Both the position numbers and the translations under genes were made by a program. Positions 1-56,713 of a stretch of 64,000 nt of DNA are shown here, in pieces. The notes beneath the pieces were generated by a model that saw nothing but the letters and a program-made list of their open reading frames with translations, was not told where the DNA came from and made no database searches. Numbering within the stretch: position 1 is the stretch's first letter; every line of letters begins with the position of its first letter. This stretch comes from an uncultured Gammaproteobacteria bacterium (GTDB lineage Bacteria; Patescibacteriota; Patescibacteriia; Patescibacteriales; UBA12465), in the NCBI GenBank assembly GCA_964408775.1, contig CAYPAP010000001.1:89524-153523 (forward strand), in the 5' to 3' direction.

Positions 1-1424
1 TCTAATTCTTCTTTGCTTAGCTCTAACCTGGCCAATTTCATTTTATTTTTCATAATAACGAACTCTTTCTTGATAGCCTTTATTTTATTAGAGATCGCGC
101 TTGCATCGCCTGAAATTATTTCATTTTTTAGGTCCTTTATAAAATCATTGAAAGTTATTTCCTTTCTCTCGTAGAAATCGGTCTTAAAATAAAAATATTT
201 TTCATTATATTCGTGGTACCATTTTTTTAATAAAGAGTTCTCTAAATCCCTGGGTTTGTTTTTTAATATTTTTTCTTTTATTTCTGAGTTTTTAAAAACA
301 CGGAGACAAATATTGTAAAAATGAATTCTCTCTTCCGAAAAAACAGAAATACTGGAAGAACAAAAAATATCACCCATTATTTTCTTGGTTTTTTCCTCTC
401 CCAATCTTTCTAATAATAGCTCCTCTATTTTTTGATAAGAAAACTGTCCTTTGTCTTCTAGAAGTAACGCGTATTCCCACCATTTTTTAAATTTATTTAT
501 GAAATCACTATAAACTTTAATATCAATCCCTTTTTGGTTTTTAAAAGAATCCAGAATCTCCTCTATCTCGATTTGATTCCTTATCATTTTTTTTATCTCA
601 GCAATTCCGCCCTTTTCAAATCTAGAATAAAGATATTCACCTATCTTTAAAATATCATTTTTAGAAATAATTTCCCTAAATTGGTTATTGCTATCCAAAT
701 AAGATAAAACCGGAAAATCCCCGATATTGGTTTTTATAAATCGAGCATAAATAGAAAAAACAAGATCACACATAAAGAAAGATGCTTTAGCTGATTGAAC
801 ATCAAACTCATTATTCGTTAGAAAATTTAATAGTTCTTTCTTGTTTAAGAAATTAATATTGCTAGCTTCTCTTGTATCAGTACTAATTTCATCAGCTTTC
901 TTTAGTATCCTCACTACCCCATTATCGGCATCAACTTCTACCTCATCGCCGTCTTTTAAAACCTTGACCGCTATTTTGGTTCCAATAACACATGGAACTC
1001 CTAATTCTCTAGAGACAATAGCCGCATGACAAGTTACTCCCCCCTCAGCCGTAACTATTGCCCCTGCCCTTTTCATAAGTGGCACAAAATCTGGTCTAGT
1101 CATACCAGTAACTAAAATATCACCTTTTTTAAAATTTTTACTATTATTAGGATCTAAAATAATTTTAACAACACCTCTATAAACTCCTGGAGAAGCTGGA
1201 GTTCCTTGGATAACAGCAATATCATCATCAACCTTATTAATTAACTTTTTAATTTCATGATAAGAATCATAATCATACTCATAGGTGTCGTTTCCTCTAA
1301 CCAATAAAACATAACCATTATCTCTTCTTTTTATGAGCTCTTGCACATCAGGTAATTTATTATCAATAATTTCCAAGCAACTAATATGAGCTAATAAACT
1401 ATCATCTACCCCTGGGTATAACAT
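1..1424 (-). CDS. PEP-utilising-enzyme phosphohistidine 'swivel' domain plus helical module, 3'-partial; probably the continuation of the 1530..4631 gene
   Basis: Hand translation; absent from the ORF track because it leaves the window. Sequence reads MLYPGVDDSLLAH...IQGTPASPGVYRGVVKIILD...GDILVTGMTRPDFVPLMKRAGAIVTAEGGVTCHAAIVSRELGVPCVIGTKIAVKVLKDGDEVEVDADNGVVRIL, then more than 340 further codons with no stop down to nt 1. The frame is open from 1442 and the first ATG is at 1424. Confidence 0.75.
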   Translation of the reverse strand, partial: MLYPGVDDSLLAHISCLEIIDNKLPDVQELIKRRDNGYVLLVRGNDTYEYDYDSYHEIKKLINKVDDDIAVIQGTPASPGVYRGVVKIILDPNNSKNFKKGDILVTGMTRPDFVPLMKRAGAIVTAEGGVTCHAAIVSRELGVPCVIGTKIAVKVLKDGDEVEVDADNGVVRILKKADEISTDTREASNINFLNKKELLNFLTNNEFDVQSAKASFFMCDLVFSIYARFIKTNIGDFPVLSYLDSNNQFREIISKNDILKIGEYLYSRFEKGGIAEIKKMIRNQIEIEEILDSFKNQKGIDIKVYSDFINKFKKWWEYALLLEDKGQFSYQKIEELLLERLGEEKTKKIMGDIFCSSSISVFSEERIHFYNICLRVFKNSEIKEKILKNKPRDLENSLLKKWYHEYNEKYFYFKTDFYERKEITFNDFIKDLKNEIISGDASAISNKIKAIKKEFVIMKNKMKLARLELSKEEL

Positions 1425-1529
1425 TCTGGCTGATTTACAAATTAATGTTTGCAATTTAGCAATAGGATCTTTTCTAATATCACGAAGCTTAATGGCGAAT
1501 TGAGTAAACCGCATCCATGGTTCATCATT

Positions 1530-4500
1530 CATCAAAAAGCCTTTATTATTTTTTTCTTTTATATTCTTTTTCTTTTCCTGTTTCCATCTTTTTTCTAATT
1601 CTTTTTCTGATGGGAGAAAATAATAATCCATAAAAACAAAATCAACCTCTTGATGTGATTTTGATTTTTTTATTAAACGACTCCATCTCTCCTCAAAATG
1701 CTCAAAGTCAGGATTGGCGACCTTGTTCCAGATACTGTCATTTATTTTTTTGTTTAGAACTTCTTCTACTACATTCCTATCAAAAAGCTCTATATAAACA
1801 GTAGCCATGATTAAGTTAACTATTAGATCATAAGCTTCTTTAACAGTCTGAACCGGATTAGCGATTTCTTTCTTATAAAAATTATCTATCCTTTTGTCTA
1901 GAAAATTATAATTGTGCTCAATCTCTTCTAAACTCACCTTATTATCAACAGCTTTTTTTAAGTATTCGACTGCATACTGTCTATAAAAATGATTATTTAT
2001 TGATCCCAATGTTTCTTTTCCCTTGATTAAACTAAGAACATTAAAGGTTTTTGATTCCGTAAAATATTTTTTTAAATACTTATTATTTGACCAAGCTGTA
2101 CCAGCTATAGCCAAATTAGAATAAGGTCCTGAAAAAGTAAACATCTCGTGACCTTCTAAAGATTTTATGAACTCATTATATAACTTCAATTTATCATCGC
2201 TCTTTTTATTTAATATTCTCACCACTCCATTGTCAGCATCAACTTCTACCTCGTTGCCGTCTTCTAGGACTTGAGTAGCTATCTTTGTTCCAATAATACA
2301 GGGTTTTTTGAATTCTCTAGAAACAATTGAAGCATGGCTCAAAACGCCGCCCTCTTCAGTGACTATTGCCGAGGACCTTTTTATGATTTGTAAATAATCT
2401 GGAGTTGTAGAATGACAAACAAGAATTTTCCCATCAATAAAATTATCAAAATCTTTCCCATCCCTTATAACACAAACCTCCCCGATCACTTTACCCGGAT
2501 AAGCTTTTTGACCAGAAAAAAAATCTTTTTTATTCAAATCCTCATCAATAAATTTTATTTTATTTTTTGCCTCAAAAACAAAATCACCAGAAAAAATATT
2601 AGTCTCAACACCATTAGCATACATAACAACCCTTTTTTTTCTACTCTCAATTATGTCCATGTTGGCTTTTTCGTCTTTAATTAATAATTCAATAATCTCG
2701 TTAGGACACAAAAAGAAAAAATCATTAAAATCATAGATACCTATTCTAACAGAAACCTCTTCCATTAATCCACCAAAAAGAGAGATGTTCTCATACATTT
2801 TTTCAGTTCTCCAGCTCCTAAAAAAGATTGCCTCCTGCAAAGTTTCTATATATTTTATTATTTTTTTATCTTTTATTCTTCTTTTAAAGCTATTCAAGTC
2901 TTTTAGAAATATTTTTTTTGAATCTATAATTTTTTTTATTTTTTCTTCTGGGTTATCTAGTAAATTCTCATTTATTCTACTTAAGACCTCTTCCTTTGTA
3001 TAATATTCATTATTCATTGAAACATTTTTTAACCATTTGTATTTATTAACATGCTTTAAAATATCTTTTTGTAATAATTTATTATTTTTCTTGTTAATAC
3101 ACAACTTTAACAAGCACAATTCCTCTTCTTGAACCGAACTACTTTTAATAGACGTAGTAAATAACTGCTCAGCTTTACTAATTTCACTATTTTTAAAAAA
3201 CATACTTAAACTGGATTTAATTTTACTCTCTAAAAAATTTTCTAATAAAAGAGGGAAAACCATGTGAGAGGCGGCCCTTAAAGAGAGGTCTAAATATTTT
3301 TGAAAAAAAACTAACAATTCTTTATTCGTACTTTTGTTAAAGGTATTATTATTTATTTTAGAAGCAAATAATTTTATATTCTTATCTATTTCGTATCCAT
3401 TTTTAATTGTCTTTAATAATATATCTTCATCTTCGGCTATTTTTGCTTCGGCTATTTTTTTTAATTCACTCCAGTCCTCCTTAGCAAACATCAAATCATT
3501 ATCCAAATTAAGTATTCTTTTTATTTCATAGGGAAAATCAAAAAAATTATTATGATGCTTTGATGCCCCCTCCCAAAGTAAATAAAAATAAAAGGGTGTT
3601 CTGTATCTTTTGTGTATATAATGCCATTTTATTGAACTTAAATAATCTATAATATTTAATGAGCTATCACTATCCTTTGCAATATTTATTTTGAGAGTCG
3701 TAATCGGCCTACTTTGGACTATGTAGAAGATGTCATCCTCCATGGCCCATTCAATATCACAAGGGAAATTATAGTGGTTTTCGATTTTAATAATAAGGCT
3801 TGATAATTCAATTATTTGTTTATCTGATAGACATTGTTCTTTGGCTGTGGCTTTTGGGATATTTCTCCATTCATTACCTCCCTTTTTATCATCTCTAAAT
3901 ATTCCTCTTTCTTGGGTATAAACATTTTTATCTAAAATACTGAGGTCGTCTTTAGTAACAACATAAGAATCAGGAGTAATTTGACCAGATACTATGGCTT
4001 CTCCTAATCCAAATCCAGCTTCAATGATTATTTGATTTCTGTCTTCAGTTACGGGATGAACTGAAAAAGCAATACCGGAGACCTTTGAATTAACCATTCT
4101 TTGAACAACTACAGCCACTGATATGATTTGATTATGTAATTCTTTCTCGAATCTATAAAAAATCGCTCTAGGGGTAAAGAGCGAAGCAAAACATCTTTGA
4201 ACATTCTCTAATAATGTTTCCTCTGTAGTATTTAGAAAACTATCTAATTGACCAGCCCAGGCGGCAGAGGCAGAATCTTCGGCGGTAGCACTGGATCTAA
4301 CAGCTACATATTTACAATTTAACTTACTAAATTCTGTTTTTATCTCTTTGGCTATGTCTTTGGGCATCTTAGCGTTGAGTATTAGGGACTGGATTTGTTT
4401 AGAAGCATTTTCTACGGTATGAACTTCATTATGATTAACTTTATTCAATATGGCTTCTATTTCAATACTAATGTCGGTTATTTCTAGGAATTTATCAAAA

Positions 4501-4631
4501 GTAGTGGATAATACTACAAAACCATCGGGCACTGGTATACCAGAGGTTATCATTTCTCCTAGAGAGGCACCTTTACCTCCGGCGATGTTGGCATCGTGCT
4601 TAGAGAGTTGTTGGAATGGTTTGGTGAACAT
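1530..4631 (-). CDS. PEP synthase / rifampicin-phosphotransferase-like enzyme (PPDK_N ATP-grasp + helical domain + swivel His domain), 1033 aa
   Basis: Not in the ORF track. I translated it line by line: ATG at 4631, no stop until TGA at 1530-1532. The N-terminus MFTKPFQQLSKHDANIAGGKGASLGEMITSGIPVPDGF is typical of the PpsA/PPDK N-terminal ATP-grasp. ...CHSTTPDYLQIIKRSSAIVTEEGGVLSHASIVSREFKKPCIIGT is a PEP-utilizer mobile domain with its catalytic His. It starts 17 nt after the murB stop. Confidence 0.8.
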
Positions 4632-4648
4632 ATTTTTATATTATTAAT

Positions 4649-5671
4649 TTATAATACATTAACCTCTTCCTCTAAATCAATATCAAAACTATTTTTAACC
4701 CCTCGCTTTATTTCCTTAACTAAATTTAAAACATCCTCCTGTTTAGCTCCACCGTGATTTACAATTATCAAGGCCTGTTTTTCGTAAACCCCGACTGGAC
4801 CAAAATTTTTGCCCTTAAAACCGCATTGTTCTATCAGCCAACCGGCCGGAATCTTAATTCCCTTCTCGTCTGGGAAATTTTTAATATCAGGAAATTTTTC
4901 TTTCAAAGCATCAAAATGCTCCTCGCTAATTATTGGGTTTTTAAAAAATGAACCGGCATTAGCTATGACTGCCGGATTAGGTAATTTACTGTCACGAATT
5001 TCTCTAATAATTTCAGTTAATTCCTTCAAGCTCGGCTCCTTAATTCCTCTCTCCTCCAAGACTCGCTGAACATCGGGATAATTTAAATTTAACTCTCTGC
5101 TACGACTAAGCTTAAATTCCACCCAAAGAATAAAATATTTACCCTTTAAGTCTTTTTTAAAAATACTGTCACGGTAAGCAAATTGACAATCCTTCAAACC
5201 AAAAATTTTAAGTTCCCCGCTATTAACATCAATTGCCCCTAAAGCATAAAAATTATCTTTTACTTCCGCGCCATAAGCCCCAACATTTTGCATTGGCGCT
5301 GCCCCAACTGTCCCAGGGATATAAAAAGTGTTTTCTAGCCCATATAAATCATTTTCAATAGTGAAATAAACTAACTTAGACCAAGCCTCCCCGCTATAAG
5401 CTCGAACAATGACCTCATTCTCATTTTCCGAAATTATTTCCATTCCTTTAATTTCATTTTTTATAACTAACCCGGAAAAACCTTGGTCAGAAAATAAAGT
5501 ATTAGAGCCTCCTCCTAGTATAAATATGGGTTCATTCTTTTTATTGGCCCAACTTAAGGCTGTCTTCAATTCCTCTTCGTTTTTAACCACAACAAAAAAC
5601 TTAGCCAAACCGCCAATTTTAAAGGTGGTATAGTCGGATAATTTTATGTTTTCTAAAATTTCTAAATTCAT
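4649..5671 (-). CDS. murB: UDP-N-acetylenolpyruvoylglucosamine reductase
   Basis: ORF track 340 aa. FAD-binding N-terminus YTTFKIGGLAKFF...FILGGGSNTLF, and mur cluster context. Confidence 0.9.
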   Translation of the reverse strand: MNLEILENIKLSDYTTFKIGGLAKFFVVVKNEEELKTALSWANKKNEPIFILGGGSNTLFSDQGFSGLVIKNEIKGMEIISENENEVIVRAYSGEAWSKLVYFTIENDLYGLENTFYIPGTVGAAPMQNVGAYGAEVKDNFYALGAIDVNSGELKIFGLKDCQFAYRDSIFKKDLKGKYFILWVEFKLSRSRELNLNYPDVQRVLEERGIKEPSLKELTEIIREIRDSKLPNPAVIANAGSFFKNPIISEEHFDALKEKFPDIKNFPDEKGIKIPAGWLIEQCGFKGKNFGPVGVYEKQALIIVNHGGAKQEDVLNLVKEIKRGVKNSFDIDLEEEVNVL

Positions 5672-5699
5672 TATATTAATTATAAATTATAAATTATTT

Positions 5700-5754
5700 T
5701 ATCGCGCGGCCACGTGCCGAAGGTGAAATCGCGTTCCGAAGGTTTTACGCGATA
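5700..5754. repeat. GC-rich palindromic intergenic element (TATCGCG...CGCGATA termini)
   Basis: tatcgcgcggccacgtgccgaaggtgaaatcgcgttccgaaggttttacgcgata. It has 7-bp terminal inverted repeats, an internal CGGC-cacgt-GCCG hairpin, and a duplicated ccgaaggt. It is a GC island in the AT-rich 219-bp murC-murB spacer. Confidence 0.55.
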
Positions 5755-5890
5755 ATTATAAATTTTCTTATTATTTTTTTGTCGAAACCGCGATCTCGGC
5801 TATTAATCTTTTTTTTATAAATTTTGTAAAAGATTTTAAGCTTCACGCTATTTCTCCAAAAAAACAATAAGAAAATTTAATTTATTTATA

Positions 5891-7315
5891 CTATTTTTGT
5901 GTTTTTAATAAACTTTCCCCTACACGGAAGACATCGCCAGCACCTAAAAGTAATATAACATTATTATCACCCTTAATTTCTCGTAATTCTTTTTCAACGG
6001 CTTTCATGTCCTTAAAATATTTTAAATCTTGGTTAATTTTGTGTTTCAAGTTATATTGCCTTATTTTCTCCATTAAATCAAGGCTAGAAAGACCGCCAGC
6101 CTTTTCTCGGGCCGAGGTATAAATTTCTAATAAATAGACCTTATCTGACTGGGTAAAACTTTCAGCAAAATCATTTATTAGAGCTTTAGTCCGAGTAATG
6201 GTATGAGGATGAAAAACAGTAATTATTTTTTTGTTTTTATACTTCTGGGTCACCGCCTCTAAACAAGCTTTAACCTCAACCGGATGATGAGCATAATCAT
6301 CAATAATAATATTACCTTTAAATTTTCCTAAAACTTCAAAGCGACGAGCCGAACCCGAAAATGACCACAAAGCTTTTTTAACATCGTCAACCTTAGCTCC
6401 TAATTTTAATGAAGTAGCAATAACAGCCAAAGCATTAGAAATATTATGACGACCAAATAACTTTATTTTAAATTCTCCCAAGCTTTTATTGTTTTCAAAA
6501 ACTTCAAAAATCTGACCACTAGATTTTAATTTAAAATTTTTAGCTGAATAAATTTTATACTTTGTTCCCTTAAATTTCTTATTAACATCACCTAAACAAT
6601 ATCCAATTATTTTTCCGGCTGAATTTTTAGAAGCTTGAAAGGCCAAATTATTTTCCAAATTAACTACGACAAAACCATTTTGTGGAATTTTTTTTATAAA
6701 ATCAACAAAAACTTTATAATATGCCTTCTCATCTTTAAAATAATCAGGGTGATCGTAGTCAATATTATTTAAAACAATAGCTTGGGGATTAAAATATTGA
6801 AACTTATTCTGATATTCATCGGATTCGGCAATAAAATATTTGGACTTACCGATCAAAGCACTGCCCTTAAATTGCTGAACGTAGGAACCGGTCAAAACAT
6901 TGGGTGAAAGACCACTGTATTGCAAAACATAACCCAGCCAAGAAGTAACTGTGGTCTTGCCATGACTACCGCAAACCGAAATACCAAAATAATCATCAAA
7001 TAAATAACCCAGGGCCTGAGCATAAGAAATTTTAGGAATATTCTTGTCCTTAAAATATTTTAACTCTATATTTTCCTGGTCGTTATAGGCCGAAGAATGA
7101 ATTATTAAATCAATTTTTTTAGGAAAATTTTTTAGAGAAAATCCATTTTTAAATTTAATTTTAGCATTAAGCAAGGTTTTATCAGTTGGGAAGACATCTT
7201 TAATATCTGAACCACTAACAACAAAACCTTGACTCTGTAAAAATTGAGCCAACATTGCCATACCAACCCCCTTAATTCCAACCATATAAACATTTTTGTA
7301 ATTTCCCAATTTCAT
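5891..7315 (-). CDS. murC: UDP-N-acetylmuramate--L-alanine ligase
   Basis: 474 aa. Motifs VGIKGVGMAMLAQFL and GSHGKTTVTSW (Mur ligase P-loop), with mur cluster context. Confidence 0.9.
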   Translation of the reverse strand: MKLGNYKNVYMVGIKGVGMAMLAQFLQSQGFVVSGSDIKDVFPTDKTLLNAKIKFKNGFSLKNFPKKIDLIIHSSAYNDQENIELKYFKDKNIPKISYAQALGYLFDDYFGISVCGSHGKTTVTSWLGYVLQYSGLSPNVLTGSYVQQFKGSALIGKSKYFIAESDEYQNKFQYFNPQAIVLNNIDYDHPDYFKDEKAYYKVFVDFIKKIPQNGFVVVNLENNLAFQASKNSAGKIIGYCLGDVNKKFKGTKYKIYSAKNFKLKSSGQIFEVFENNKSLGEFKIKLFGRHNISNALAVIATSLKLGAKVDDVKKALWSFSGSARRFEVLGKFKGNIIIDDYAHHPVEVKACLEAVTQKYKNKKIITVFHPHTITRTKALINDFAESFTQSDKVYLLEIYTSAREKAGGLSSLDLMEKIRQYNLKHKINQDLKYFKDMKAVEKELREIKGDNNVILLLGAGDVFRVGESLLKTQK

Positions 7316-7321
7316 ATTATA

Positions 7322-8413
7322 TTAATTTAAAATTTCTTTAATAATATTTATCATTTCGGCATTGCCATTTTTAATAACCCAAGAAATGTTAGCACTTAAA
7401 CGATTTTTTAAATCCGGATTATTTAGAATATTTTTTATTTCATTGATAAAAATGTCGGGACGTAAATTTTTTTCTGGTAAAATTTTGGCTGCCTTCAATT
7501 TATCAAATTCTTGAGCATTAATTTCTTGGTGAGAATCGGGCATTGGAATTAAAATAGCTGGTTTTTTGAAAAAAGATAATTCGGTTAAAGTCCCCAGGCC
7601 ACAACGAGAAATTATTAAATCAGCCTCTAACATTAAACTTAGTAAATCTTGATGAAAAACAAAGTCGGTTTTTTGATAGTTTTCCGGAAATGCTTTTTTA
7701 TTTTCATCTCTTTCAATTCTCCCACTAACATGAAAGACCCTAGTAAAAATTATTAGATCAGCCACAGACTGAGATACCAATTGATTTATAAAAGAAGATC
7801 CGGTTCCCCCTCCAACTACTAAAATTAGTGGCAAATGAGACGACTTAATTTTATATTTTTTTAATATTTCTTTTCGATTAGAAGAAAAATTTTTTAAATC
7901 TGGTCCTAAATTTCCTATCCACCTCGCTTTATTGCCATAATCTTTTAATGAACTCTCAAATGTAACAGTCACAATCCTGGAAAACTTAGCCATAATTTTA
8001 TTAGCCAAACCAGGAATCACATCTTGCTGGTGAACTATAACTGGAATGCGCCAAAACCAGGCAGCAATAGAAAGTGGCACAGCCACAAACCCGCCGGCGC
8101 TAATAATTAAGTCAGGTTTTTCTTTTTTTAATAAAAACAATGACTGCCAAAAAGCAATAAATATTTTAAAAATATCAATAAAATTTAATAAGGAAAAATA
8201 ACGACGCCACTTGCCGCTTAAAATAGATTGGTATTCAATAGCCTCTTTTTTTACCAATTCTCTCTCTATACCACTATGAGTTCCAATAAACAAAAAATCA
8301 AACTCATATTTAAGCTCTTTATAAATTTGTAATAATGGAGTGACCGAACCACCAGTTCCCCCACCACTTAAAATTATTTTTTTCTTATTTGTTTTCATTA
8401 TTTCGTTTGTCAT
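7322..8413 (-). CDS. murG: UDP-GlcNAc:undecaprenyl-PP-MurNAc-pentapeptide GlcNAc transferase
   Basis: 363 aa. SGGGTGGSVTPLL N-terminal glycine-rich motif; lies between ftsW and murC. Confidence 0.85.
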   Translation of the reverse strand: MTNEIMKTNKKKIILSGGGTGGSVTPLLQIYKELKYEFDFLFIGTHSGIERELVKKEAIEYQSILSGKWRRYFSLLNFIDIFKIFIAFWQSLFLLKKEKPDLIISAGGFVAVPLSIAAWFWRIPVIVHQQDVIPGLANKIMAKFSRIVTVTFESSLKDYGNKARWIGNLGPDLKNFSSNRKEILKKYKIKSSHLPLILVVGGGTGSSFINQLVSQSVADLIIFTRVFHVSGRIERDENKKAFPENYQKTDFVFHQDLLSLMLEADLIISRCGLGTLTELSFFKKPAILIPMPDSHQEINAQEFDKLKAAKILPEKNLRPDIFINEIKNILNNPDLKNRLSANISWVIKNGNAEMINIIKEILN

Positions 8414-9636: not shown

Positions 9637-10686
9637 TTACCCTAAAGTCTTGTCAGCTAAAAATATTAAAAGTCCGATAACAGCTACCACCGCTGAGACA
9701 AGCCAAAAACGCATCACAATTTTACTCTCTGACCAACCTTGAGCTTGAAAATGATGATGGATAGGGGCTGACAAAAAAACCTTTTTCTTTCTAATTTTTC
9801 TAGATAATATTTGAATTATAACCGACAAAGATTCCACCACAAAAATAAACCCTATTAGAGGCAAAAGCATAACATTGTTAGTAAGTAACGCGATTATTCC
9901 CAGGGTAACACCTAAGCTCATCGAACCGGTATCCCCCATATAAAAACGGGCTGGAGGGATATTAAACCATAAAAAGGCCAACAAAGCCCCAATTATAACA
10001 CCACAAAAGGCGGCGAGATCATAGCGCCCCATAGCAAAAGAAATAATAGCATAAGAACCAAATGCAATAAGTAATGTTCCCCCCGCCAAGCCATCCAAGC
10101 CATCAGTTTCGTTAACTGAGAAAGAAGTAGCCACAATAACTAGAATAAAAACCGGAATATACCACCAACCAATTTGAAAATACCCCAAGAAAGGTACATG
10201 AATAGTGGTCCAATCTAATTTAAAATAAAACCACAAAGCTCCAATAAGGGCAATAAGAGCATAAATAATTAAACGATGTCTCATTTTGAAACCGCCACCA
10301 CCAAAAACCCCCTTACCTCGAACGTCCAACCAATCATCCACTAAGCCAATTAAGGCCGAGGCCACCAAAGCCCCTAACGGCAATAGAGTTTCTTTTTGTG
10401 ATAAAAAATTTAAAGTAGAGGTGAAATTATTAGGGAAAAATTTATATAAATAATAAAAAAACAAAACGAAAACAAAAGTTGTGCCCCAGATTAAAACCCC
10501 ACCCATAGTTGGAGTACCAGATTTATGAGCATGTAATTTACTGAAAATAGGAGTATCACCGGAATTCCTAATTTTTTTTCCAAGCTTGTATTTATATAAG
10601 AAATTAGACAAAAGAGGTATCCACAAAATAGTAAAAACAAAAGCTAATGTTGTTAAAAACAAAATTTTAATAATCTGTAATTCCAT
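9637..10686 (-). CDS. mraY: phospho-N-acetylmuramoyl-pentapeptide transferase
   Basis: 349 aa. Motifs GTPTMGG, NETDGLDGLA and the HHHF segment. Confidence 0.9.
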   Translation of the reverse strand: MELQIIKILFLTTLAFVFTILWIPLLSNFLYKYKLGKKIRNSGDTPIFSKLHAHKSGTPTMGGVLIWGTTFVFVLFFYYLYKFFPNNFTSTLNFLSQKETLLPLGALVASALIGLVDDWLDVRGKGVFGGGGFKMRHRLIIYALIALIGALWFYFKLDWTTIHVPFLGYFQIGWWYIPVFILVIVATSFSVNETDGLDGLAGGTLLIAFGSYAIISFAMGRYDLAAFCGVIIGALLAFLWFNIPPARFYMGDTGSMSLGVTLGIIALLTNNVMLLPLIGFIFVVESLSVIIQILSRKIRKKKVFLSAPIHHHFQAQGWSESKIVMRFWLVSAVVAVIGLLIFLADKTLG

Positions 10687-10697
10687 AGATAAAAAAA

Positions 10698-11111
10698 TTA
10701 AAAATTAATTAAATAAAGTGCATATAAAGAGAGCAACAATAAAATGTTTAGAAATAATAATAAAGCTAACAGAAAATGCGCTAGAAACTTAAAGTCATCT
10801 CTTTTAGTCAAGAATAACAAAACTATTTTATTTACGATAATAAAAGATAGGCCAAATATCGGCATCATAAAGAAGGAATTACGATGACCAATTAAATCAA
10901 TTCCAAAATCAACATTATAATGCAAAATAGTGATGTCCTGACTAATGTTTTTATACATATAATAGGCCCCTAACCACAGCATTAAATTTAAAAAAATAAT
11001 GACTATGAAATAGACCTTGATAAATAAGAATCGAAACAAACTATTTAACAAAATTTTATACTTATGAAAGAAGACTCCCAAGGAATCGTAAATTTTAATA
11101 AAAAAACCCAT
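10698..11111 (-). CDS. hypothetical small membrane protein
   Basis: 137 aa with 3-4 hydrophobic segments. No family recognised. Confidence 0.5.
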   Translation of the reverse strand: MGFFIKIYDSLGVFFHKYKILLNSLFRFLFIKVYFIVIIFLNLMLWLGAYYMYKNISQDITILHYNVDFGIDLIGHRNSFFMMPIFGLSFIIVNKIVLLFLTKRDDFKFLAHFLLALLLFLNILLLLSLYALYLINF

Positions 11112-11217
11112 AAATTTTAGTAAATTTGATTATTCTTGCTATTATTATTTTTATCTACTATCATTTTAGCATATTTAAATATAATATAAAATATGCTATA
11201 GTAAAGTAAATAAAAGT

Positions 11218-11889
11218 ATGACTATATTCTGCATAATACCAGCCTACAACGAATCTAAAAACATAGCCCAAACAGTTACGTCTGTTTTAAGCTATGTTGA
11301 TAAGGTTATTATAGTTGATGACTGCTCTCAGGACAAAACCATCGAAGAAGTTGGAAAAATAAATAATGAAAAAATTAAAATATTGCGTCATCCCATAAAC
11401 TTAGGGCAAGGAGCAGCCCTACAAACCGGGAATAATTATGCCCTAAGAAATGGAGCTGATATTATTGTTCACTTTGATGCTGACGGTCAATTTCTGGCTG
11501 AAGAAATTTCTCAAGTGATTGAGCCGATAAAAAATGGTGAGGCTGATATCGTTTTTGGTTCTCGTTTTTTAAATATTAAATCAGATATTCCGGCTTTTAA
11601 GAAAAATATTATTATGCCTTTGGCGAAATTATTTAATTTTATATTTTTTGGTATAAAAACCAGTGATCCTCAAAGTGGTTTTAGGGCTATGACTAAGGAG
11701 GTCGCCGAGAAGATTAAAATTGAAAATAATCGCATGGCTCATTGTACCGAAATTTTAGCCAAAGCCCATAAATATAAATTTCGTATTAAGGAAGTACCAA
11801 TTACTGTTTTGTATAAAGAGTTTGGACAAAAATTTTCTGGAGGTTTTAGAATAATTAAGGATTTATTTTTTAGAAAAATTAGTGGATAA
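11218..11889 (+). CDS. family-2 glycosyltransferase (polyprenyl-phosphate sugar synthase-like)
   Basis: 223 aa. IIPAYNES...VDDCSQD...FDADGQ (GT-A DXD). Confidence 0.8.
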   Translation: MTIFCIIPAYNESKNIAQTVTSVLSYVDKVIIVDDCSQDKTIEEVGKINNEKIKILRHPINLGQGAALQTGNNYALRNGADIIVHFDADGQFLAEEISQVIEPIKNGEADIVFGSRFLNIKSDIPAFKKNIIMPLAKLFNFIFFGIKTSDPQSGFRAMTKEVAEKIKIENNRMAHCTEILAKAHKYKFRIKEVPITVLYKEFGQKFSGGFRIIKDLFFRKISG

Positions 11890-11951
11890 TTATCGCGTAA
11901 AGCCACGTATAGCTCGCCACGTAAACGTGGCTCACACGTGGCTCGCGATAA
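11890..11951. repeat. GC-rich rod-like palindromic element (TTATCGCG...CGCGATAA)
   Basis: Three nested perfect stems read directly. TTATCGCG (11890-97) pairs with CGCGATAA (11944-51). GCCACGT (11902-08) pairs with ACGTGGC (11936-42). GCCACG (11916-21) pairs with CGTGGC (11926-31) around loop TAAA. The element begins 1 nt after the GT2 stop codon. Confidence 0.65.
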
Positions 11952-11982
11952 ATAAAAATCTAATTAAAATAATTTTAAAAAT

Positions 11983-12300
11983 ATGACACAACAAGTAATT
12001 GCTATTTTGATTTTAATATTTTTTGTCTTTAAATTAGGACTGGAATGGAAAAAAAAATCCATTACTATCAATGAATTTGTTTTTTGGTTAATTTTTTGGG
12101 TAATTGGGGTTTTTGTTATTGCCTTTATTAAACCAATTGATAGATTGGTAATGGATTTGGGCTTTTCCTCTTCGGGTATTAATTTAGTCTTTTATGTAGC
12201 GGTATTATTATTGTTTTATTTGATATTCAGAATGAGGTTGAGGATGGTAAAGATGGAAAAAGATATTACGGAGCTGAGCCGGAAGATTGCTTTAAAATAA
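11983..12300 (+). CDS. small membrane protein, DUF2304-like (usual GT2 partner)
   Basis: 105 aa with 3 TM segments and a charged C-terminal helix; lies immediately after a GT2 gene. The family assignment is from memory of this gene pair. Confidence 0.55.
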   Translation: MTQQVIAILILIFFVFKLGLEWKKKSITINEFVFWLIFWVIGVFVIAFIKPIDRLVMDLGFSSSGINLVFYVAVLLLFYLIFRMRLRMVKMEKDITELSRKIALK

Positions 12301-12310
12301 AAATAAAAAA

Positions 12311-13054
12311 CTAATTCTTACAGTAATAAGTCCGGCTTTGGACGTGCGGTCCACAATAGGTGTCTTCTTTTATTGCCAGAACCTCAAAGCCACTATCTCT
12401 CAAAAATTCTTTCATATCCACCTCAGAAATAAAACTCATCTTAATAGGGTAAAGCCCTATTTTTTGATACAAAAAATTTTCCGAAAATCCGATTAACTTT
12501 AAGAAATTATATAAACGTCTTACCGGTTGAAAACGAAAAGTCCAAGGAATTTTACTGGGTAATTGAAAAACCAAAATTCCGTCATTTTTTAAAATTCGCT
12601 TAAATTCTATAATACATTCTTTTATCAGCTCCCTATTGGGTAAATGCTGCAAAACTATGCCCGAATAAATAAAATCAAATTTATTATCAGAAAAAATTTT
12701 TAAGTCAGCTTCATTGATAAAAAACTCAGCTGGTAATCCACTATTTATCTCCCTGGCCCTTTCTATCATCGGGCGAGAAATATCAGCGCCATTATATTTG
12801 AAAAAATATTTTAAAAAATGACGAGTTAAGCGCCCCACCCCACAGCCAAAATCTAACATTTCGGCCTTTGCTGGAGTAATATCAAGACTTCTTAATTCAG
12901 AGAAAATATTTTCTACTTCCTTTTCTCCGGTTTTTAAAAATTCCTCTAAGTTCCAATTGTTAAATCTCTTAGAGCTATCAGACAAAATTGCCCACAAAGG
13001 GTCTAGTTCTCCTAGCTTTTCCCAGTTTTTTTTATGTTTTTCAATTTGACTCAT
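12311..13054 (-). CDS. class I SAM-dependent methyltransferase
   Basis: 247 aa. Motif I LDFGCGVGRLT, with ...GILVFQLP downstream. Confidence 0.75.
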   Translation of the reverse strand: MSQIEKHKKNWEKLGELDPLWAILSDSSKRFNNWNLEEFLKTGEKEVENIFSELRSLDITPAKAEMLDFGCGVGRLTRHFLKYFFKYNGADISRPMIERAREINSGLPAEFFINEADLKIFSDNKFDFIYSGIVLQHLPNRELIKECIIEFKRILKNDGILVFQLPSKIPWTFRFQPVRRLYNFLKLIGFSENFLYQKIGLYPIKMSFISEVDMKEFLRDSGFEVLAIKEDTYCGPHVQSRTYYCKN

Positions 13055-13110
13055 ATTTTTGTATTCATATACACTAAGTTAATTATATCAATATAGAATT
13101 ATATTTTCAA

Positions 13111-13140
13111 ATAAAAAAACCGGTTCTTGGTGAACCGGTT
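13111..13140 (-). terminator. intrinsic terminator
   Basis: Minus strand reads AACCGGTTC-ACCAA-GAACCGGTT (9-bp perfect stem) followed by TTTTTTTATTT. It lies 23 nt after the stop of 13163..13783. Confidence 0.75.
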
Positions 13141-13162
13141 AGATGCCTTAGTGGCGAAGAGC

Positions 13163-13783
13163 TTATTGCTTCCAGACTACTCCCAGCTTTAAAAGCTGGA
13201 CTTCGCCGGTAAAATTGTAACCGACGTCGGTGTAGGCTGATAACTTTTGGTTTATTGGTTGTGTATACCTCAACCCAGCAGTATGTATGGGTTTGTTGGT
13301 GAGGTAATGTATCAAACAATAATTTGCCTCAACTCTCCAGTGCTTAAGGGTGATTTGATTAACTGCGAAGGCAAACTTCGAGTCTTTCGGCCTAGACAAA
13401 TTCTGATCGAATTCACCCAATGTCCAACCGACCCAATGGAAAGTTGATATAAAGGGCGCCGGAGAGAAAACTGCCTGCGGACCAGCCCAGGGAGTATTAA
13501 AGTAATACCCAGCCGATGGACCCACAAGGAGCTTGTCCTCAAAAAATCGGAAAAAGTTGGTCACCATAATATCGTTGTCCGATATAGTGACAATTGTGAA
13601 CGATTTTTTGGAGGAGAAGTTGAAATCAATATAGGTGCCCTCGGTGAGAGCACCTTTCCCTGAAGAAACCTTCAATTCATCGAAGGTTACCTTCTGGTTA
13701 ATTGAATCCGGCGCTTCGGTGACGGCCATCGCAGTCAAAGATAGTGCAAATATGCACAAAACAATAAAACTGATTTTTTTCAT
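13163..13783 (-). CDS. secreted hypothetical protein, beta-rich (paralogue A)
   Basis: 206 aa. Signal peptide MKKISFIVLCIFALSLTAMA; alternating hydrophobic pattern; C-terminus ...LLKLGVVWKQ. Confidence 0.7.
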   Translation of the reverse strand: MKKISFIVLCIFALSLTAMAVTEAPDSINQKVTFDELKVSSGKGALTEGTYIDFNFSSKKSFTIVTISDNDIMVTNFFRFFEDKLLVGPSAGYYFNTPWAGPQAVFSPAPFISTFHWVGWTLGEFDQNLSRPKDSKFAFAVNQITLKHWRVEANYCLIHYLTNKPIHTAGLRYTQPINQKLSAYTDVGYNFTGEVQLLKLGVVWKQ

Positions 13784-13822
13784 GGTGATTTTTTTGTTTG
13801 GTTTTAGTTATTGATTGTTTGA

Positions 13823-14449
13823 TTAATTAATCTTCCAATTAACCCCCAACTTCAAAAGTTGGGTTTTGTTTGTGATATCATAAGCGATGTCGGTATAAGC
13901 CGAAAGATCGCCGTTGATTTTTTGGGTGTACCTCAGACACGAAACATGCTTCGGCTTTAATTCTTGAAAATGAATAATCGTATGCGACACCCGAAATCTC
14001 CAGATATCATAGCAAACAGAATTTACCAGAAAAAGGAACGAAGGCTCAACTTCCCAGATACCCTCTGGCTGGCCAAATGAATAACCGGTCCAATGCAGGG
14101 TCGAAAACCCCTTGAAAGGAGAAGTTATCGCGATTGCTCCGACGTAAGGAACATTTTTAAAATATCCACCGCTCGGACCAATTTTAATTATTCTCTTTTC
14201 TCCAATAGAGAAGAGATGATTAACCAAAATCTTATCCTGAGCAATAGTTATTTGCGACGCTCCATGGTTCGCAGAGCTTGAATTAAAGATAACATAAATT
14301 CCAGATCCTAAGGCACTACGTCCCGAGGAGAAATCAATGTTTTTTAACTCAAATTCTGGGGTTGTCTGAACAACCGAAGAATCGATCTGAGCCTAAGCTT
14401 GAGCGAAGGCTACACCAAGCAAAAAAGAAAAAAACAACATTTTTCTCAT
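13823..14449 (-). pseudogene. paralogue B of the secreted protein, interrupted by an in-frame TAG at 14393-14395
   Basis: Hand translation: MRKMLFFSFLLGVAFAQA-TAG-AQIDSSVVQTTPEFELKNIDFSSGRSALGSGIYVIFNSS...VNHLFSIGEKR..., which joins the 134-aa track ORF (that ORF begins at a TTG). It aligns with paralogue A throughout, e.g. LRYTQKINGDLSAYTDIAYD...QLLKLGVNWKIN. Confidence 0.7.
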
Positions 14450-14641
14450 AATCTTTATGGTTTTAAGGTTATTAATTAAATTGTTTATAAACCCCACCTA
14501 AATTCACTAATCGAAAGCAGATGAATTCAATAAACAATTTAATTATTAAACCTCTTTGTCAAAGAACCAAATAACTATGTATTATAGCATATTTCTAATA
14601 ATATGTCAAGGATTTGAGCAAAAAGGCCCTAATTTAGCAGT

Positions 14642-14670
14642 AAAAACAAAAAAACCTCTCCAGCGAGAAG
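14642..14670 (-). terminator. intrinsic terminator after the DEAD-box helicase
   Basis: Minus strand reads CTTCTC-GCTG-GAGAGG (one G-U pair) followed by TTTTTTTGTTTTT, about 28 nt after the stop. Confidence 0.55.
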
Positions 14671-14697
14671 TCTTCTTTGGCTAAAAAAATTTAAACA

Positions 14698-16005
14698 TTA
14701 TCCTCTTCTACGATTAAAGTTACCAGATCGACCCTTTGGTTTCCTGGTAAAAAACTTTTTATTATTACCTCTATTATTACTATTAGACCTAACACTATTA
14801 CCACCTCCTCTACTGCCACTATTATTACTATTATTACCACCTTTTTTATTAGCCCTATTAATCAACACCTCATCCGAGCCCATTCTGCGAATTGGTAAAT
14901 TCTTTTTTATTAATCTCTCTATTTTTTGGATTTGTCTAATCTGATTAGATAAAGAAAAAGTTATAGCCTTGCCGCCCTTACCAGCCCTGGCTGTTCTACC
15001 AATACGATGAACATAGTCTTCGGAATTATCCGGCAGATCATAATTCAAAACTAATTGAATATCATTAATATCCAAACCTCTGGCCGCAACATCAGTGGCC
15101 ACCATAATTCTACTAGAAGCATCTTTAAAGTCTTGCAAAGATTTTTTTCTTTGATTGAAAGATAAATTGGAGTGGATTTCTACAGACCTATAACCATTGT
15201 CGTTAAGTCGCTTGCACAAAGAACTGGCCCCATATCTAGTTCTAACAAAAATCAAAACTAGTTTTCGGTAGTCACCCAATATTTTTATTAAATTTTTAAA
15301 TTTCTCTTCCGATCTAATTAAATAAATTTCTTGATCAATTAAATCCACGGTACTGCCCGATGGAGCCACTTGAATTTGAAGTGGAGTCTTTAAATATTTT
15401 TCAGCTAATTTAATTATAGCCGCTGGCATGGTAGCTGAGAACAATAATGTCTGGCGAGTTTTTGGTGTTAATTTTATTAACTCCTCAATTTGCGGAGCAA
15501 AGCCCATATCAAACATCATATCAGCTTCATCTAAAACTAAAAAAGAAATATCATCCAGTCTAATTGTTTTCCTTCGCAAGTGATCTAATAATCTCCCCGG
15601 AGTAGCCACAATAATATTAGGATTTCTTTTTAAGGAAAATAATTGTCGATTAAAAGCTTCTCCTCCAATAATGGAAATAGTTTTTATACCCAAACCCCAA
15701 GCAATTTTTTTTAAATTTTCCTCTACTTGATTAGCCAACTCTCTAGTAGGAAGTAAAACTAAAGCTCGACCTCTAGAGCTTAATATATTTTGAATAAGCG
15801 GAATACCAAAAGCAAAGGTTTTCCCAGTTCCCGTTTGAGCGACCCCCATTAAATCATGCCCCTTAATAGCTGGGGGAATTGATTTTCTTTGTATTAAAGT
15901 TGGTTCTGTTATCCCATTTTTTGTTAAAATAGATAAAATCCTACTATCAATACCGAGACCATCAAAACCGCTAGCCTTTTCACCCTTTTCTTCGTTTTTT
16001 TGCAT
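14698..16005 (-). CDS. DEAD-box ATP-dependent RNA helicase
   Basis: 435 aa. Motifs AQTGTGKTFAF, PTRELA, VLDEADMMF, SAT and HRIGRTARAG, with an Arg/Gly/Asn-rich C-terminal tail. Confidence 0.9.
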   Translation of the reverse strand: MQKNEEKGEKASGFDGLGIDSRILSILTKNGITEPTLIQRKSIPPAIKGHDLMGVAQTGTGKTFAFGIPLIQNILSSRGRALVLLPTRELANQVEENLKKIAWGLGIKTISIIGGEAFNRQLFSLKRNPNIIVATPGRLLDHLRRKTIRLDDISFLVLDEADMMFDMGFAPQIEELIKLTPKTRQTLLFSATMPAAIIKLAEKYLKTPLQIQVAPSGSTVDLIDQEIYLIRSEEKFKNLIKILGDYRKLVLIFVRTRYGASSLCKRLNDNGYRSVEIHSNLSFNQRKKSLQDFKDASSRIMVATDVAARGLDINDIQLVLNYDLPDNSEDYVHRIGRTARAGKGGKAITFSLSNQIRQIQKIERLIKKNLPIRRMGSDEVLINRANKKGGNNSNNSGSRGGGNSVRSNSNNRGNNKKFFTRKPKGRSGNFNRRRG

Positions 16006-16016
16006 AAAATGTAAAT

Positions 16017-18041
16017 TTAAAATTTAAAGTAAAAAATCATGACCTTAGAGTTATTCACACTGTAGACTAGGTCAGCCTCTACTCTAGCCTCTTCTGCGAT
16101 TTTAGTAAAGCCCCACCAATAATCATTAACCACAAAGTAAGCCCCCTCAGCTCCGACCTCAGTCATTAGCCCTAACATCAATTCCCTACTAGGTTCCTCA
16201 ATCATCTTCAAATAATAGTCATATAATAATCCTCCGGTCTGAACGGAATAATAAAGCCAAGGACCATAATACCTTTTAAAGCCATATTCTTTAATAGCAC
16301 TAGCTCCCACCTGTTGATTGGCTAAGACAATATAATTATCATTCTCCTTAACACTCTCGATAAAGCGCACGGCCGAAAAATCAGAAGAAGAAACCGAAAA
16401 AGCGCGAGAATTAAAATGATTATCTTTGCGCGGATAATTTAAATACAGTGAAACCAAAAGTAAGGCCGACAAAAATATTAAAATAATAATTTTAAAAAAT
16501 ATTTTTTCTGATTTTACTTTTTTTATTAAGCAAATAAAAATTTCATAAAAAACTGGAAGCAAGAACAAGAATGATAATATTAAAATTCTACCAGCATAAC
16601 TTCCTTTGTCTATTTGACTTAAAAATGGGAAGTCTATAAACAAACTTAATAAATATGAAAGCATTAGAGCTAGAGAATTAAAATAAAAAATTTTTAATTC
16701 CTTGAGACGGTATTTAAGAATAAAAATTGTAGCTAATAAAAATAAAATTAATAGCCACCAATTTTTATTGAGACCAAAAAAATAAATAAAGTTTAAAATG
16801 ACGCTTTCCTGCCCGACTAACCTAGGAGCCCAATTAGATAAATTGATATTAGAAATAGAAAATCGGCCACCAGAAAATATTAGAAGTATTGGTAGTATTA
16901 TAATTTGACCTAAATAAGCTAAGTATTTTAAAGCATTTAGCAACTTATAATTAAATTTCAAGCTCCACTTCCCTGTTTTCAGCAAACTTCCATTATTTTT
17001 AATGTTGCTAATAAACAAAATAAAGGTAAAAATAATTGCTGGCACTCCGGCCAAGGGATGAATAAAAAATACTGATAAGGCCAGCGAGAATAAAAAGAAG
17101 AAATTAAATCTCTGAATAATAAAATTTTTATTAAAAGAAAAAATTAATAAAATAATTAAAAACAAAAAGGCTAAGTTTTGCGGAACGGTGTAAGTAAAGA
17201 TTGAAAATGGTAAAATTAGAAATAATAATAAAGGCCAAATAGTTTTATGAAATCCTCGTTTTTTAAAATTAAAAATAAAGGTCAAGGGAATTAATACGGC
17301 TGATAAAAATGGGACTAGCAATTTATCCAAGGTCTCCAAAGAAAAGGGCCAAATTTTTAAAATAAATAATTCCAAAGTATATTGACCGAGATAGTAAATA
17401 GTTTTGGGCTCCATAACTCCAAATTTCAAGATATCAGCCAAGGCACGTTGATGAAGTAATTGATCATAACCAAAAGCAATTTTATAGACAAAAAAGGAAA
17501 TAGAAAAAAATAAAAAATATATCATGGTCATAAATAAATACGACCACTTACTTTTGAAATAAAAATCTACAAATAAAGCTACTAATAAAAACCAAAGAAA
17601 AATCCAGAAATAATTGGGTAAAAATTGCCAAGGTGATGCAATGGCCGAGAGACTTCCGGATCTAAATAGTATTTGAAATAGGATGAAAAATAATGTTAGG
17701 GTTATTAGGGGTAAAATTATCTTCAAGAATAGCCCAAATAATTTACTGCTAATCCTGGATTCCAGTTCTCGCTCTATGCCTGCCTTAGCCACGGAGTGGC
17801 GTGGGGGGAAAAATGACGAGGACGAAGAAAGCACACCTTGTTGATTGCCCCCAGAAATGCTAAAATATATTAAGATATAAGTTAAAAATAACGACAAAAT
17901 TAAGGTAATTACTACCCCCAAGTCATTAAATTTGTAAAAATAATACCAAATAGAGCCGATATTAATAATCAGCGACAAAAACAATAGAAAAATTAAGAGG
18001 AAATTTTTTCTAAAATAATTTAAAAAAGTATTAAAACTCAT
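16017..18041 (-). CDS. large polytopic membrane protein with a C-terminal soluble domain (possible GT-C-type glycosyltransferase/polymerase)
   Basis: 674 aa with more than 12 hydrophobic segments, divergent from a GT4 gene. The function is inferred from context only. Confidence 0.4.
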   Translation of the reverse strand: MSFNTFLNYFRKNFLLIFLLFLSLIINIGSIWYYFYKFNDLGVVITLILSLFLTYILIYFSISGGNQQGVLSSSSSFFPPRHSVAKAGIERELESRISSKLFGLFLKIILPLITLTLFFILFQILFRSGSLSAIASPWQFLPNYFWIFLWFLLVALFVDFYFKSKWSYLFMTMIYFLFFSISFFVYKIAFGYDQLLHQRALADILKFGVMEPKTIYYLGQYTLELFILKIWPFSLETLDKLLVPFLSAVLIPLTFIFNFKKRGFHKTIWPLLLFLILPFSIFTYTVPQNLAFLFLIILLIFSFNKNFIIQRFNFFFLFSLALSVFFIHPLAGVPAIIFTFILFISNIKNNGSLLKTGKWSLKFNYKLLNALKYLAYLGQIIILPILLIFSGGRFSISNINLSNWAPRLVGQESVILNFIYFFGLNKNWWLLILFLLATIFILKYRLKELKIFYFNSLALMLSYLLSLFIDFPFLSQIDKGSYAGRILILSFLFLLPVFYEIFICLIKKVKSEKIFFKIIILIFLSALLLVSLYLNYPRKDNHFNSRAFSVSSSDFSAVRFIESVKENDNYIVLANQQVGASAIKEYGFKRYYGPWLYYSVQTGGLLYDYYLKMIEEPSRELMLGLMTEVGAEGAYFVVNDYWWGFTKIAEEARVEADLVYSVNNSKVMIFYFKF

Positions 18042-18070
18042 ACCTATAATATAGCAAAAAATACAAATAT

Positions 18071-19171: not shown

Positions 19172-19214
19172 CATAAACCCTGTTGTGCCTCCGTCTTTGC
19201 TGAAACCTCTATCT

Positions 19215-19545
19215 GTGTCACCCCCGGCGACCCACGTTAGTTTTCTGAGGTGCGTAGCACGAAGAAAACTTTTACGTGGGGAGGAAAGGGGGACCAGGGT
19301 TGGTCCACATAAATAATAATGCTTATAAAATGACCAAAGAGCACAATTATTATATTTATATATTATTAAATAAAATTAGTATAAAAAAATAATCTCATTT
19401 AAAGAAATGAGCTTAGAGGCATTAATTAATAACCGAATATTTATCGGTTTAACCCTGGACCCCCTTCCCTCTCGCGTATAGCCATTTTTATAAACATTAC
19501 TTCGTAATATTTATAAAAATGCCACGCGATCGCCGGGGGTGACAC
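19215..19545 (+). other. 331-nt nested inverted-repeat element (predicted four-way junction): cis-regulatory RNA or MITE-like element
   Basis: P1 is GTGTCACCCCCGGCGA (19215-30) paired with TCGCCGGGGGTGACAC (19530-45), 16/16. Hairpin 19231-19280 has stems 7+7+4 bp. P2 pairs 19281-19301 with 19451-19471, 19/21. Hairpin 19472-19529 has stems 5+12+5 bp. All four helices abut with no spacer nucleotides. The downstream ATG is at 19546. Confidence 0.6.
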
Positions 19546-20628: not shown

Positions 20629-20732
20629 GTAACCCCAAAAATACCCATTCTACAATCTTTTATGTATAGTTCTATATTTTTGATATAATTTTATAAAAAC
20701 CGCCATATGTATGTGCACATTACCGCTAACCC

Positions 20733-20761
20733 TTGACAAAGACATAATAATATTATATAAT
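20733..20761 (+). promoter_or_regulatory. sigma-70-type promoter (consensus hexamers)
   Basis: TTGACA (20733-38), a 17-nt spacer, then TATAAT (20756-61), 19 nt upstream of the ATG at 20781. Confidence 0.55.
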
Positions 20762-20780
20762 AAAACTCTAACAAAAAAGT

Positions 20781-56709: not shown

Positions 56710-56713
56710 ATTT

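Follow-up and report, generated by a model that had tools for sequence, protein, structure and literature searches.

A giant gene at the edge of the window

The window analysed here is a stretch of 64,000 nucleotides (nt) from contig CAYPAP010000001.1 (positions 89,524 to 153,523, forward strand) of assembly GCA_964408775.1, derived from an uncultured bacterium assigned to the Patescibacteriota in GTDB. Its first bases are occupied by a giant gene (positions 1–4631) for a protein related to phosphoenolpyruvate (PEP) synthase and rifampin phosphotransferase (RPH), in which one ATP-grasp domain is followed by several pairs of a helical middle domain and a swivelling phosphohistidine domain. The gene, its parts and its upstream neighbour murB are all read from the minus strand. 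No stop codon interrupts the frame over the 1,546 codons between position 4640 and the edge of the window. Starting with its ATG (4631–4629), the gene remains in frame to base 3 and comprises 1,543 codons within the window, in agreement with the minimum of 1,540 codons given in a first-pass annotation made from the sequence alone. The same annotation had noted that the gene is missing from the list of open reading frames (ORFs); this was confirmed, and the sole reason is that the listing program drops ORFs that run off their source.

The full-length counterpart of the gene is a database protein (P0001, from JGI) of 1,752 amino acids (aa), which matches the window protein over 1,543 residues with the exception of residues 760–762. 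P0001 holds the complete third middle domain, which had been predicted to run off the window, followed by a third swivel domain, and the protein stops directly after this swivel. The last 209 codons of the gene lie past the window, and this 3' end was recovered as protein and not as contig DNA; a search with bases 1–40 of the window gave no exact match in two contig collections (genome_contigs and metagenome_contigs). The full architecture is N-[H1-S1]-[H2-S2]-[H3-S3], that is, one ATP-grasp domain (N) and three modules, each composed of a middle domain (H) and a swivel (S). The linkers from each swivel to the next middle domain are short, about 10–15 residues.

Domain searches with Pfam assigned the N-terminus (residues 1–320; positions 3672–4631) to PPDK_N, the ATP-grasp family, at residues 15–319 (E 2.3e-97), and identified PEP-utilizers, the swivel family, in two stretches of the window protein (E 3e-49). 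In P0001, PPDK_N was found once and PEP-utilizers three times, so that the ATP-grasp start and the two or more repeats translated by hand in the first-pass annotation are upheld, and the protein is not one with a single bona fide PEP-utilizer domain. The middle domain H1 (residues 321–700) is encoded at 2532–3671 and the swivel S1 (residues 701–815) at 2187–2531, with the codon of His766 at 2334–2336 in the motif GGVLSH. H2 (residues 816–1135) is encoded at 1227–2186 and S2 (residues 1136–1250) at 882–1226, with the codon of His1202 at 1026–1028 in GGVTCH; both histidine codons are exactly where they had been placed. Positions 3–881 encode the first 293 of the 403 residues of H3 (residues 1251–1543), and the rest of H3 and the swivel S3, with His1708, lie outside the window.

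The two kinds of domain differ in how well they are conserved. S1 and S2 are 57% identical, and all three swivels carry the T/S-x-x-G-G-x-x-x-H motif of the RPH-like superfamily, at His766, His1202 and His1708. Among 379 aligned modules from the family, the histidine and the Arg and Glu that follow it in the motif were kept in every one. Between the middle domains BLAST detects no similarity; profile–profile comparison of their families nevertheless returned homology for all three pairs (H1–H3 99.3%, E 1e-20; H1–H2 97.4%; H2–H3 96.9%). The window protein and P0001 differ solely in a conserved part of S1, where residues 760–762 (positions 2343–2351) are E-G-G in the window and K-S-D in P0001. 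The two glycines ahead of the swivel histidine are almost invariant (375 and 374 of the 379 modules), and they are replaced before His766 in P0001. The K-S-D variant may be a strain difference that disables swivel 1, or the P0001 record may be wrong here.

Catalytic residues, predicted structure and known enzymes

The ATP-grasp domain can be aligned over its full length with PEP synthases and RPH-Lm. In RPH-Lm, the residues K22, R117 and T136 position ATP and are needed for the first phosphotransfer (PMC4844700); they correspond to K20, R112 and S131 in the window protein. For the middle domains, the profile of module 1 aligns to residues 567–866 of RPH-Lm, which places a family motif opposite the catalytic block R666-E667-Y-P-K670 (block 9). 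The consensus of this motif is [LWIF]-R-D-x-R-K-[ED] across 211 long-type modules, based on counts in the columns of a hidden Markov model (HMM); an earlier count by a crude regular expression (R..RK) gave misleading numbers and was discarded. H2 carries the complete motif, L1049-R-D-I-R-K-D1055 (positions 1467–1487), which matches both the consensus R-D-x-R-K and the R-E..K block of RPH, and an alignment of 16 sequences of the H2 family shows no variation at its R, D, R and K positions. In H1 the motif is partial (F604-R-S-W-R-T-E610, positions 2802–2822): the first arginine, R605, is kept and R608 is present, but the acidic residue is replaced by Ser and the lysine by Thr. H3 also has a partial version, W-S-D1557-R-R-K1560-I. 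Two Pfam flags raised on related proteins do not represent true extra domains: PF02350 (UDP-GlcNAc 2-epimerase) is sub-threshold (18.4 versus 30.6 bits) and overlaps the swivel region, and PF01989 (AcnX swivel) reflects the common swivel fold.

Structure prediction agreed with a relationship to RPH. Module 1 (residues 321–815), modelled by AlphaFold with a 23-sequence alignment, had a mean predicted local distance difference test score (pLDDT) of 88.4 and a predicted template-modelling score (pTM) of 0.80. Its best matches in the PDB by Foldseek were the RPH-Lm structures 5fbu, 5fbt and 5hv1, with E values of about 1e-13 to 4e-14 (best 3.6e-14), a TM score of about 0.6 (0.61) and an alignment of about 560 columns that spans both the middle domain and the swivel, whereas the remaining matches cover the swivel only. 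Module 2 (residues 816–1250; pLDDT 90.8, pTM 0.90) again matched RPH-Lm best, more weakly (E 1.4e-11, TM 0.43), and H2 is the shorter and more diverged of the two folds. Over the structural alignment the middle domains are 12–16% identical to the rifampin-binding domain, and at the sequence level the alignment with RPH is confined to the C-terminal part of the middle domain. According to the models, modules 1 and 2 have the fold of the RPH rifampin-binding domain followed by a swivel, the domain with which the first-pass annotation had suggested a comparison being that of RPH; H3 is tied in through the profile homology to H1.

The protein resembles RPH, the kinase that inactivates rifampicin (RPH-Lm; PDB 5fbs, 5fbt, 5fbu, 5hv1), in its order of ATP-grasp, substrate-binding domain and C-terminal swivel, in ending on a swivel, in its kept ATP-grasp catalytic residues, in the best whole-module structural match of modules 1 and 2, and in the R-(D/E)..K helix motif that is conserved in full in H2. 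It differs in having three units of binding domain and swivel as compared to one in RPH, and nothing in the analysis points to a rifamycin as its substrate. Its scores are far below the RPH equivalog cut-offs (401.6 versus 999 and 283.4 versus 1700; NCBIfam NF041857 and NF000283), and its ATP-grasp and swivels are nearer in sequence to archaeal-type PEP synthases (8a8e, 9dae).

Both the ATP-grasp (E 4e-69 to 8a8e) and the swivel have their best sequence matches in PEP synthase (PpsA) and pyruvate phosphate dikinase (PPDK), which use the same dikinase chemistry with a swivelling histidine. In contrast to these enzymes, the window protein has no PEP/pyruvate-binding TIM-barrel domain (PEP-utilizers_C); Pfam searches down to E = 1 returned only PPDK_N and PEP-utilizers. 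It scores under both NCBIfam cut-offs for PEP synthase (544.8 versus 739.75 and 577 versus 598; TIGR01418, PRK06464), and its swivels follow a helical binding domain on the C-terminal side and are not central. The prodiginine ligases PigC, RedH and HapC share the three-domain RPH-like layout and matched through the ATP-grasp and swivel (NCBIfam E 1e-111), but the scores are far below the cut-offs (374 versus 1300), and these ligases are single-module enzymes encoded in pigment gene clusters. No family in the anti-phage defence models of PADLOC-DB 2.0 was matched at E ≤ 0.01.

The characterised members of the family that we found in the literature carry a single swivel, as the first-pass annotation had stated (PMC4844700, PMC12167813). 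Among them are the two-component dikinases HpeHI, CreHI and the phenylphosphate synthase PpsAB. Their ATP-grasp is a protein of its own, which phosphorylates the swivel on a second protein made up of a binding domain and a swivel, and HpeH alone is able to move phosphate between substrates (PMC12167813). Since HpeH carries out this transfer by itself, such modules are autonomous. The two-component enzymes are built from the same parts as the window protein, and their split layout is found at many related loci (see below), but the window gene joins them all in a single ORF. In the known systems each ATP-grasp is matched by one module, whereas in the present family 2 to at least 8 modules accompany it, several of which are fused into one chain. 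Finally, the known systems phosphorylate phenolics in the aromatic catabolism of free-living bacteria, and no such catabolic genes lie near the window gene.

A family of fused and split modules

All of the 120 best relatives of the window protein (1,100–2,670 aa) have a single N-terminal ATP-grasp match followed by one to five modules of middle domain and swivel. Three modules are the most common (68 proteins), followed by four (23), two (19), five (9) and one (1), and most of the proteins end on a swivel. The middle domains fall into two size classes of about 240 and 375 aa. Sources are named for a minority of these relatives only, and are Patescibacteria, that is, the candidate phyla radiation (CPR), and DPANN archaea (Woesearchaeota, Nanoarchaeota); at one archaeal locus (L006) the system adjoins an RNA_pol_N gene. 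The database names are limited to "PEP/pyruvate-binding domain-containing protein" and "rifampicin phosphotransferase".

We also scanned the species genomes in GTDB with the ATP-grasp domain, which gave 54 loci, of which 53 were annotated by HMM. At 39 of these 53 the ATP-grasp is a stand-alone gene of about 320 aa; the others encode N-S (8 loci), N-S-S (4), N-S-S-S (1) or a seven-module ORF (1). Two or more modules are located within 10 kb on the same strand at 24 of the 53 loci, and up to six stand-alone module genes flank one ATP-grasp gene. Fused and separate forms also occur side by side: downstream of one five-module giant lie six single-module genes of about 365 aa, and downstream of other giants one to three stand-alone module genes, whose stop and start codons often overlap. 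The largest fused form is a single ORF of 3,376 aa (L011, positions 9953–20080) in a Candidatus Parcubacteria metagenome-assembled genome (MAG), with one ATP-grasp and seven swivel modules, and preceded by one further stand-alone module. At L007 (positions 14364–22332), genes for a Fic-domain and a RhuM-family protein lie between the 2,673-aa five-module giant and its six module genes. Several GTDB MAGs with close homologues (L009, L030, L033, L037, L039, L041, L025 and others) are labelled Gammaproteobacteria, Kapaibacterium, Acidoferrum or Methanosarcinales; these labels may be wrong, or the system may also occur outside the CPR and DPANN.

The view that tandem modules behind one ATP-grasp are unusual thus holds in relation to characterised enzymes, but not to the 120 closest relatives, where the tandem form is the rule. 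Likewise, the locus does resolve into independent genes in many related genomes, as the first-pass annotation had considered it might, although this does not speak against the fused gene in the window. Because the modules are found split in so many genomes, they are autonomous cassettes that can be fused or separated. Our full-text literature searches retrieved papers on RPH, HpeHI, the prodiginine ligases and the CPR resistome, but no description of a multi-swivel dikinase or of an ATP-grasp gene with an array of modules. Surveys of the CPR resistome count "rph-like" matches without noting the multi-module architecture (PMC8651080). The cassette-built enzymes form a large, apparently undescribed family in ultra-small bacteria and archaea.

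The middle domains vary strongly within this family. A search with H2 against 1.84 billion cluster representatives identified only 50 proteins, mostly stand-alone modules of about 470 aa, which shows that the specificity domains diverge fast. Only 31 of 448 module pairs within the same protein were detectable by BLAST (median identity 25%), while the best partner of a module in another protein had a median identity of 43% and occupied the same ordinal position in 98 of 221 cases. These numbers bear on the possibility that the protein works as an assembly line or multi-site enzyme, with the modules acting in turn on one large substrate or pathway, such as a glycan, a polyol or a secondary metabolite. 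Dikinase chemistry acts on polymers in alpha-glucan water dikinase; moreover, each protein combines different module types, and the modules stay together, either fused or translationally coupled (gene overlaps of 4–8 nt in L004 and L007). However, neither the order nor the combination of modules is conserved, as the ordinal positions illustrate, no conserved biosynthetic neighbours were found at the loci examined, and the module content differs even between genomes of the same genus, which is hard to square with a fixed pathway. We therefore regard an assembly line as unlikely.

The difference within a genus is evident from a relative with a 901-kb contig (locus L001), whose murG, murC and murB products are 97%, 93% and 89% identical in amino acid sequence to those of the window. 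After murB, this genome has two stand-alone modules, a three-module gene of 1,619 aa, a split module, genes for an HD-domain protein, a phosphatase-like protein and a transposase, a four-module gene of 2,300 aa, one more stand-alone module and then alaS; by our count, the array holds 11 modules in about 22 kb. The ATP-grasp DNA of the window gene is 94% identical to that of both giants. Downstream of it the similarities separate. The DNA for H1 has no counterpart in the relative, bases 2307–911, which include the H2-coding DNA, match module 2 of the 1,619-aa gene at about 85% nucleotide identity, and bases 1077–1, with the H3-coding DNA, match module 2 of the 2,300-aa gene at 94%. The overlap of the latter two matches (911–1077) marks a recombination joint in S2-coding DNA, and the edge of the 85% match at about 2307 a second breakpoint in S1-coding DNA. 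The window gene is, as read from these DNA alignments, a mosaic of two paralogues and a unique H1, with its joints within swivel-coding DNA.

A mosaic of this kind could also come from a chimeric contig joined at swivel DNA, or the gene could be decaying, with modules 2 and 3 as relics. The joints do lie in conserved swivel-coding DNA and bring together sequences of both paralogues from a close relative, neither contig collection contained the exact DNA, and the independent record P0001 differs at the invariant glycines before His766. On the other hand, P0001 reproduces the architecture, and all 1,752 codons can be read without a stop in a genome of 33% GC. No direct repeat of at least 20 nt links the S1- and S2-coding DNA, so that the two segments are neither a recent tandem duplication nor a collapsed repeat. 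The catalytic residues are intact in all three swivels, as is the motif in H2, and a chimera would leave the family-level finding unaffected, since 119 of the 120 best relatives have at least two modules. We consider mis-assembly or decay highly improbable.

Some modules of the relative have additional features. The stand-alone modules of 573 and 626 aa at L001 (positions 4265–7944) carry extra N-terminal segments of about 100 aa, and the segment of the 626-aa module has weak, sub-threshold matches to winged-helix/ArsR-like domains, which might hint at a DNA-binding or regulatory variant. HD-domain genes recur beside the arrays, at L001 (positions 14345–16497, where a histidine-phosphatase-like gene is also present) and at L034, L035, L038, L039, L049, L050 and L062. 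These recurrent HD and phosphatase-like genes could be phosphohydrolase partners or mere synteny.

Swivel domains also serve as phospho-carriers in the phosphotransferase system (PTS), and its Enzyme I was among the structural matches. Together with the weak, sub-threshold helix-turn-helix-like N-termini in some of the relative's stand-alone modules, this would fit a protein for phosphorelay, signalling or phosphoryl buffering, in which phosphate is handed from histidine to histidine between swivels or to protein partners. We judge this quite improbable: every swivel is paired with its own partner resembling the rifampin-binding domain and bearing, in full or in part, the phosphotransfer helix motif with which RPH phosphorylates a small molecule, and no HPr, EIIA or response-regulator partners were present in the neighbourhoods examined.

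The gene for murB (positions 4649–5671) is the last of the string mraY, ftsW, murG, murC and murB, and its stop codon is located 17 nt upstream of the ATG of the giant gene, as the first-pass annotation had described. A link to the cell wall had been raised there as a speculative possibility; in such a role the protein would supply or modify a peptidoglycan precursor within the mur operon, either PEP for MurA or a phosphorylated wall intermediate. Gene order lends this some support: the two genes are on the same strand, the system occupies the same position in the same-genus relative, and the ATP-grasp gene lies beside murB or the mraY–murB cluster at two more loci (L027 and L046). These are the only 3 of 61 other loci (among L001–L062) with murB within 10 kb, which is near chance by a rough estimate of about one locus expected if 20 kb are sampled from a genome of roughly 1 Mb, and an association with mur genes as a general feature was rejected. 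Furthermore, the protein lacks a PEP/pyruvate-binding domain and scores below the PEP synthase cut-offs, DPANN archaea without murein carry the system (e.g. L006), and a recurrent neighbour family of 451 aa first taken for MurA is, judged by eye, MnmA. The adjacency to murB is local synteny only, and we give a cell-wall function very little chance of being correct. Clustering of the ORFs over 62 loci revealed no conserved functional partners but only synteny blocks, with members that we identified by eye as MnmA, a Zn-ribbon protein, AlaS, HD and HIT proteins, an ABC transporter and ribosomal proteins.

The spacer between murC and murB is 219 nt long (positions 5672–5890), as compared to a gap of only 7 nt in the relative, and has GC-rich patches and UUCG-like loops although the genome is AT-rich. 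Its folding is no better than that of shuffled sequences (z -0.39), it occurs once in the window, and Rfam gave no match to it and identified only two tRNAs in the whole window. Two ORFs on the minus strand, at 16017–18041 (674 aa) and 10698–11111 (137 aa), had no Pfam match at E ≤ 1e-5, and further large ORFs are located at 53791–56718 and 57898–60504.

A probable polyvalent dikinase and its possible role

Taken together, we think it probable that the product is a polyvalent small-molecule dikinase of the rifampin-phosphotransferase type with three modules; its one ATP-grasp would load several histidine carriers, each with a substrate pocket of its own. By analogy with RPH, PEP synthase and HpeHI, the ATP-grasp would bind ATP, pass the beta-phosphate to a swivel histidine and release AMP and Pi. 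The same ATP-grasp would charge all three swivels, within the chain or between copies in an oligomer. Each charged swivel would then swing back to its own middle domain and phosphorylate the small molecule bound there. Charging in trans must be possible in the family, given the split loci; in the fused protein it could take place in cis or between chains.

Most likely, each of the three modules has a different substrate, because the middle domains diverge from one another as much as those of unrelated family members do, beside swivels that are nearly constant. Our best guess for these substrates is hydroxyl-bearing xenobiotics, antibiotics or host-derived metabolites. The window gene would represent one configuration of a cassette system, in which one ATP-grasp serves from one to at least eight modules that are joined to it, joined among themselves or encoded by adjacent genes, and in which modules are probably reshuffled by recombination in conserved swivel-coding DNA. 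This system is found in genomes named by their sources as CPR bacteria and DPANN archaea.

Several observations weigh against this interpretation. The proposed reaction and the assignment of different substrates are drawn from homology, and the resemblance of module 2 to RPH amounts to a TM score of only 0.43. The block 9 motif is incomplete in H1 (R-S-W-R-T) and H3 (S-D-R-R-K), so that modules 1 and 3 could be less active or use other residues. With linkers as short as those between the modules, the reach of swivels 2 and 3 to the N-terminal ATP-grasp is only presumed. Lastly, since the gene was assembled from metagenome data and is a mosaic with respect to the paralogues of a relative, an assembly chimera is conceivable, although the same architecture is present in P0001 and throughout the family.

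A broader proposal goes beyond the single gene, and we put it forward tentatively, as possible but somewhat less likely than its opposite. The family may represent a hub-and-spoke phosphotransfer system of ultra-small symbionts that has not been described before. One ATP-grasp charger would serve, in cis and in trans, a rapidly reshuffled library of units that each combine a specificity domain with a histidine carrier. The units would be exchanged horizontally, with the swivel DNA as the recombination joint, and would trap or inactivate small molecules of hosts or competitors, including antibiotics.

The dikinases of this family described in the literature that we searched (PEP synthase, PPDK, RPH, PigC and HpeHI) have one ATP site, one phospho-carrier and one acceptor site. 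One ATP site that feeds three pairs of carrier and acceptor would change the view of the swivel mechanism, and the relatives reach seven fused pairs, or more if adjacent genes are counted. The system is a sizeable and fast-evolving investment in very small genomes, where enzymes are usually shed. If the modules have distinct substrates, the family would be a large untapped reservoir of small-molecule kinases, some of which possibly inactivate antibiotics, and a natural example of cassette-based enzyme engineering. If the hub-and-spoke organisation is true, CPR bacteria and DPANN archaea with reduced genomes would gain a combinatorial repertoire of kinases.

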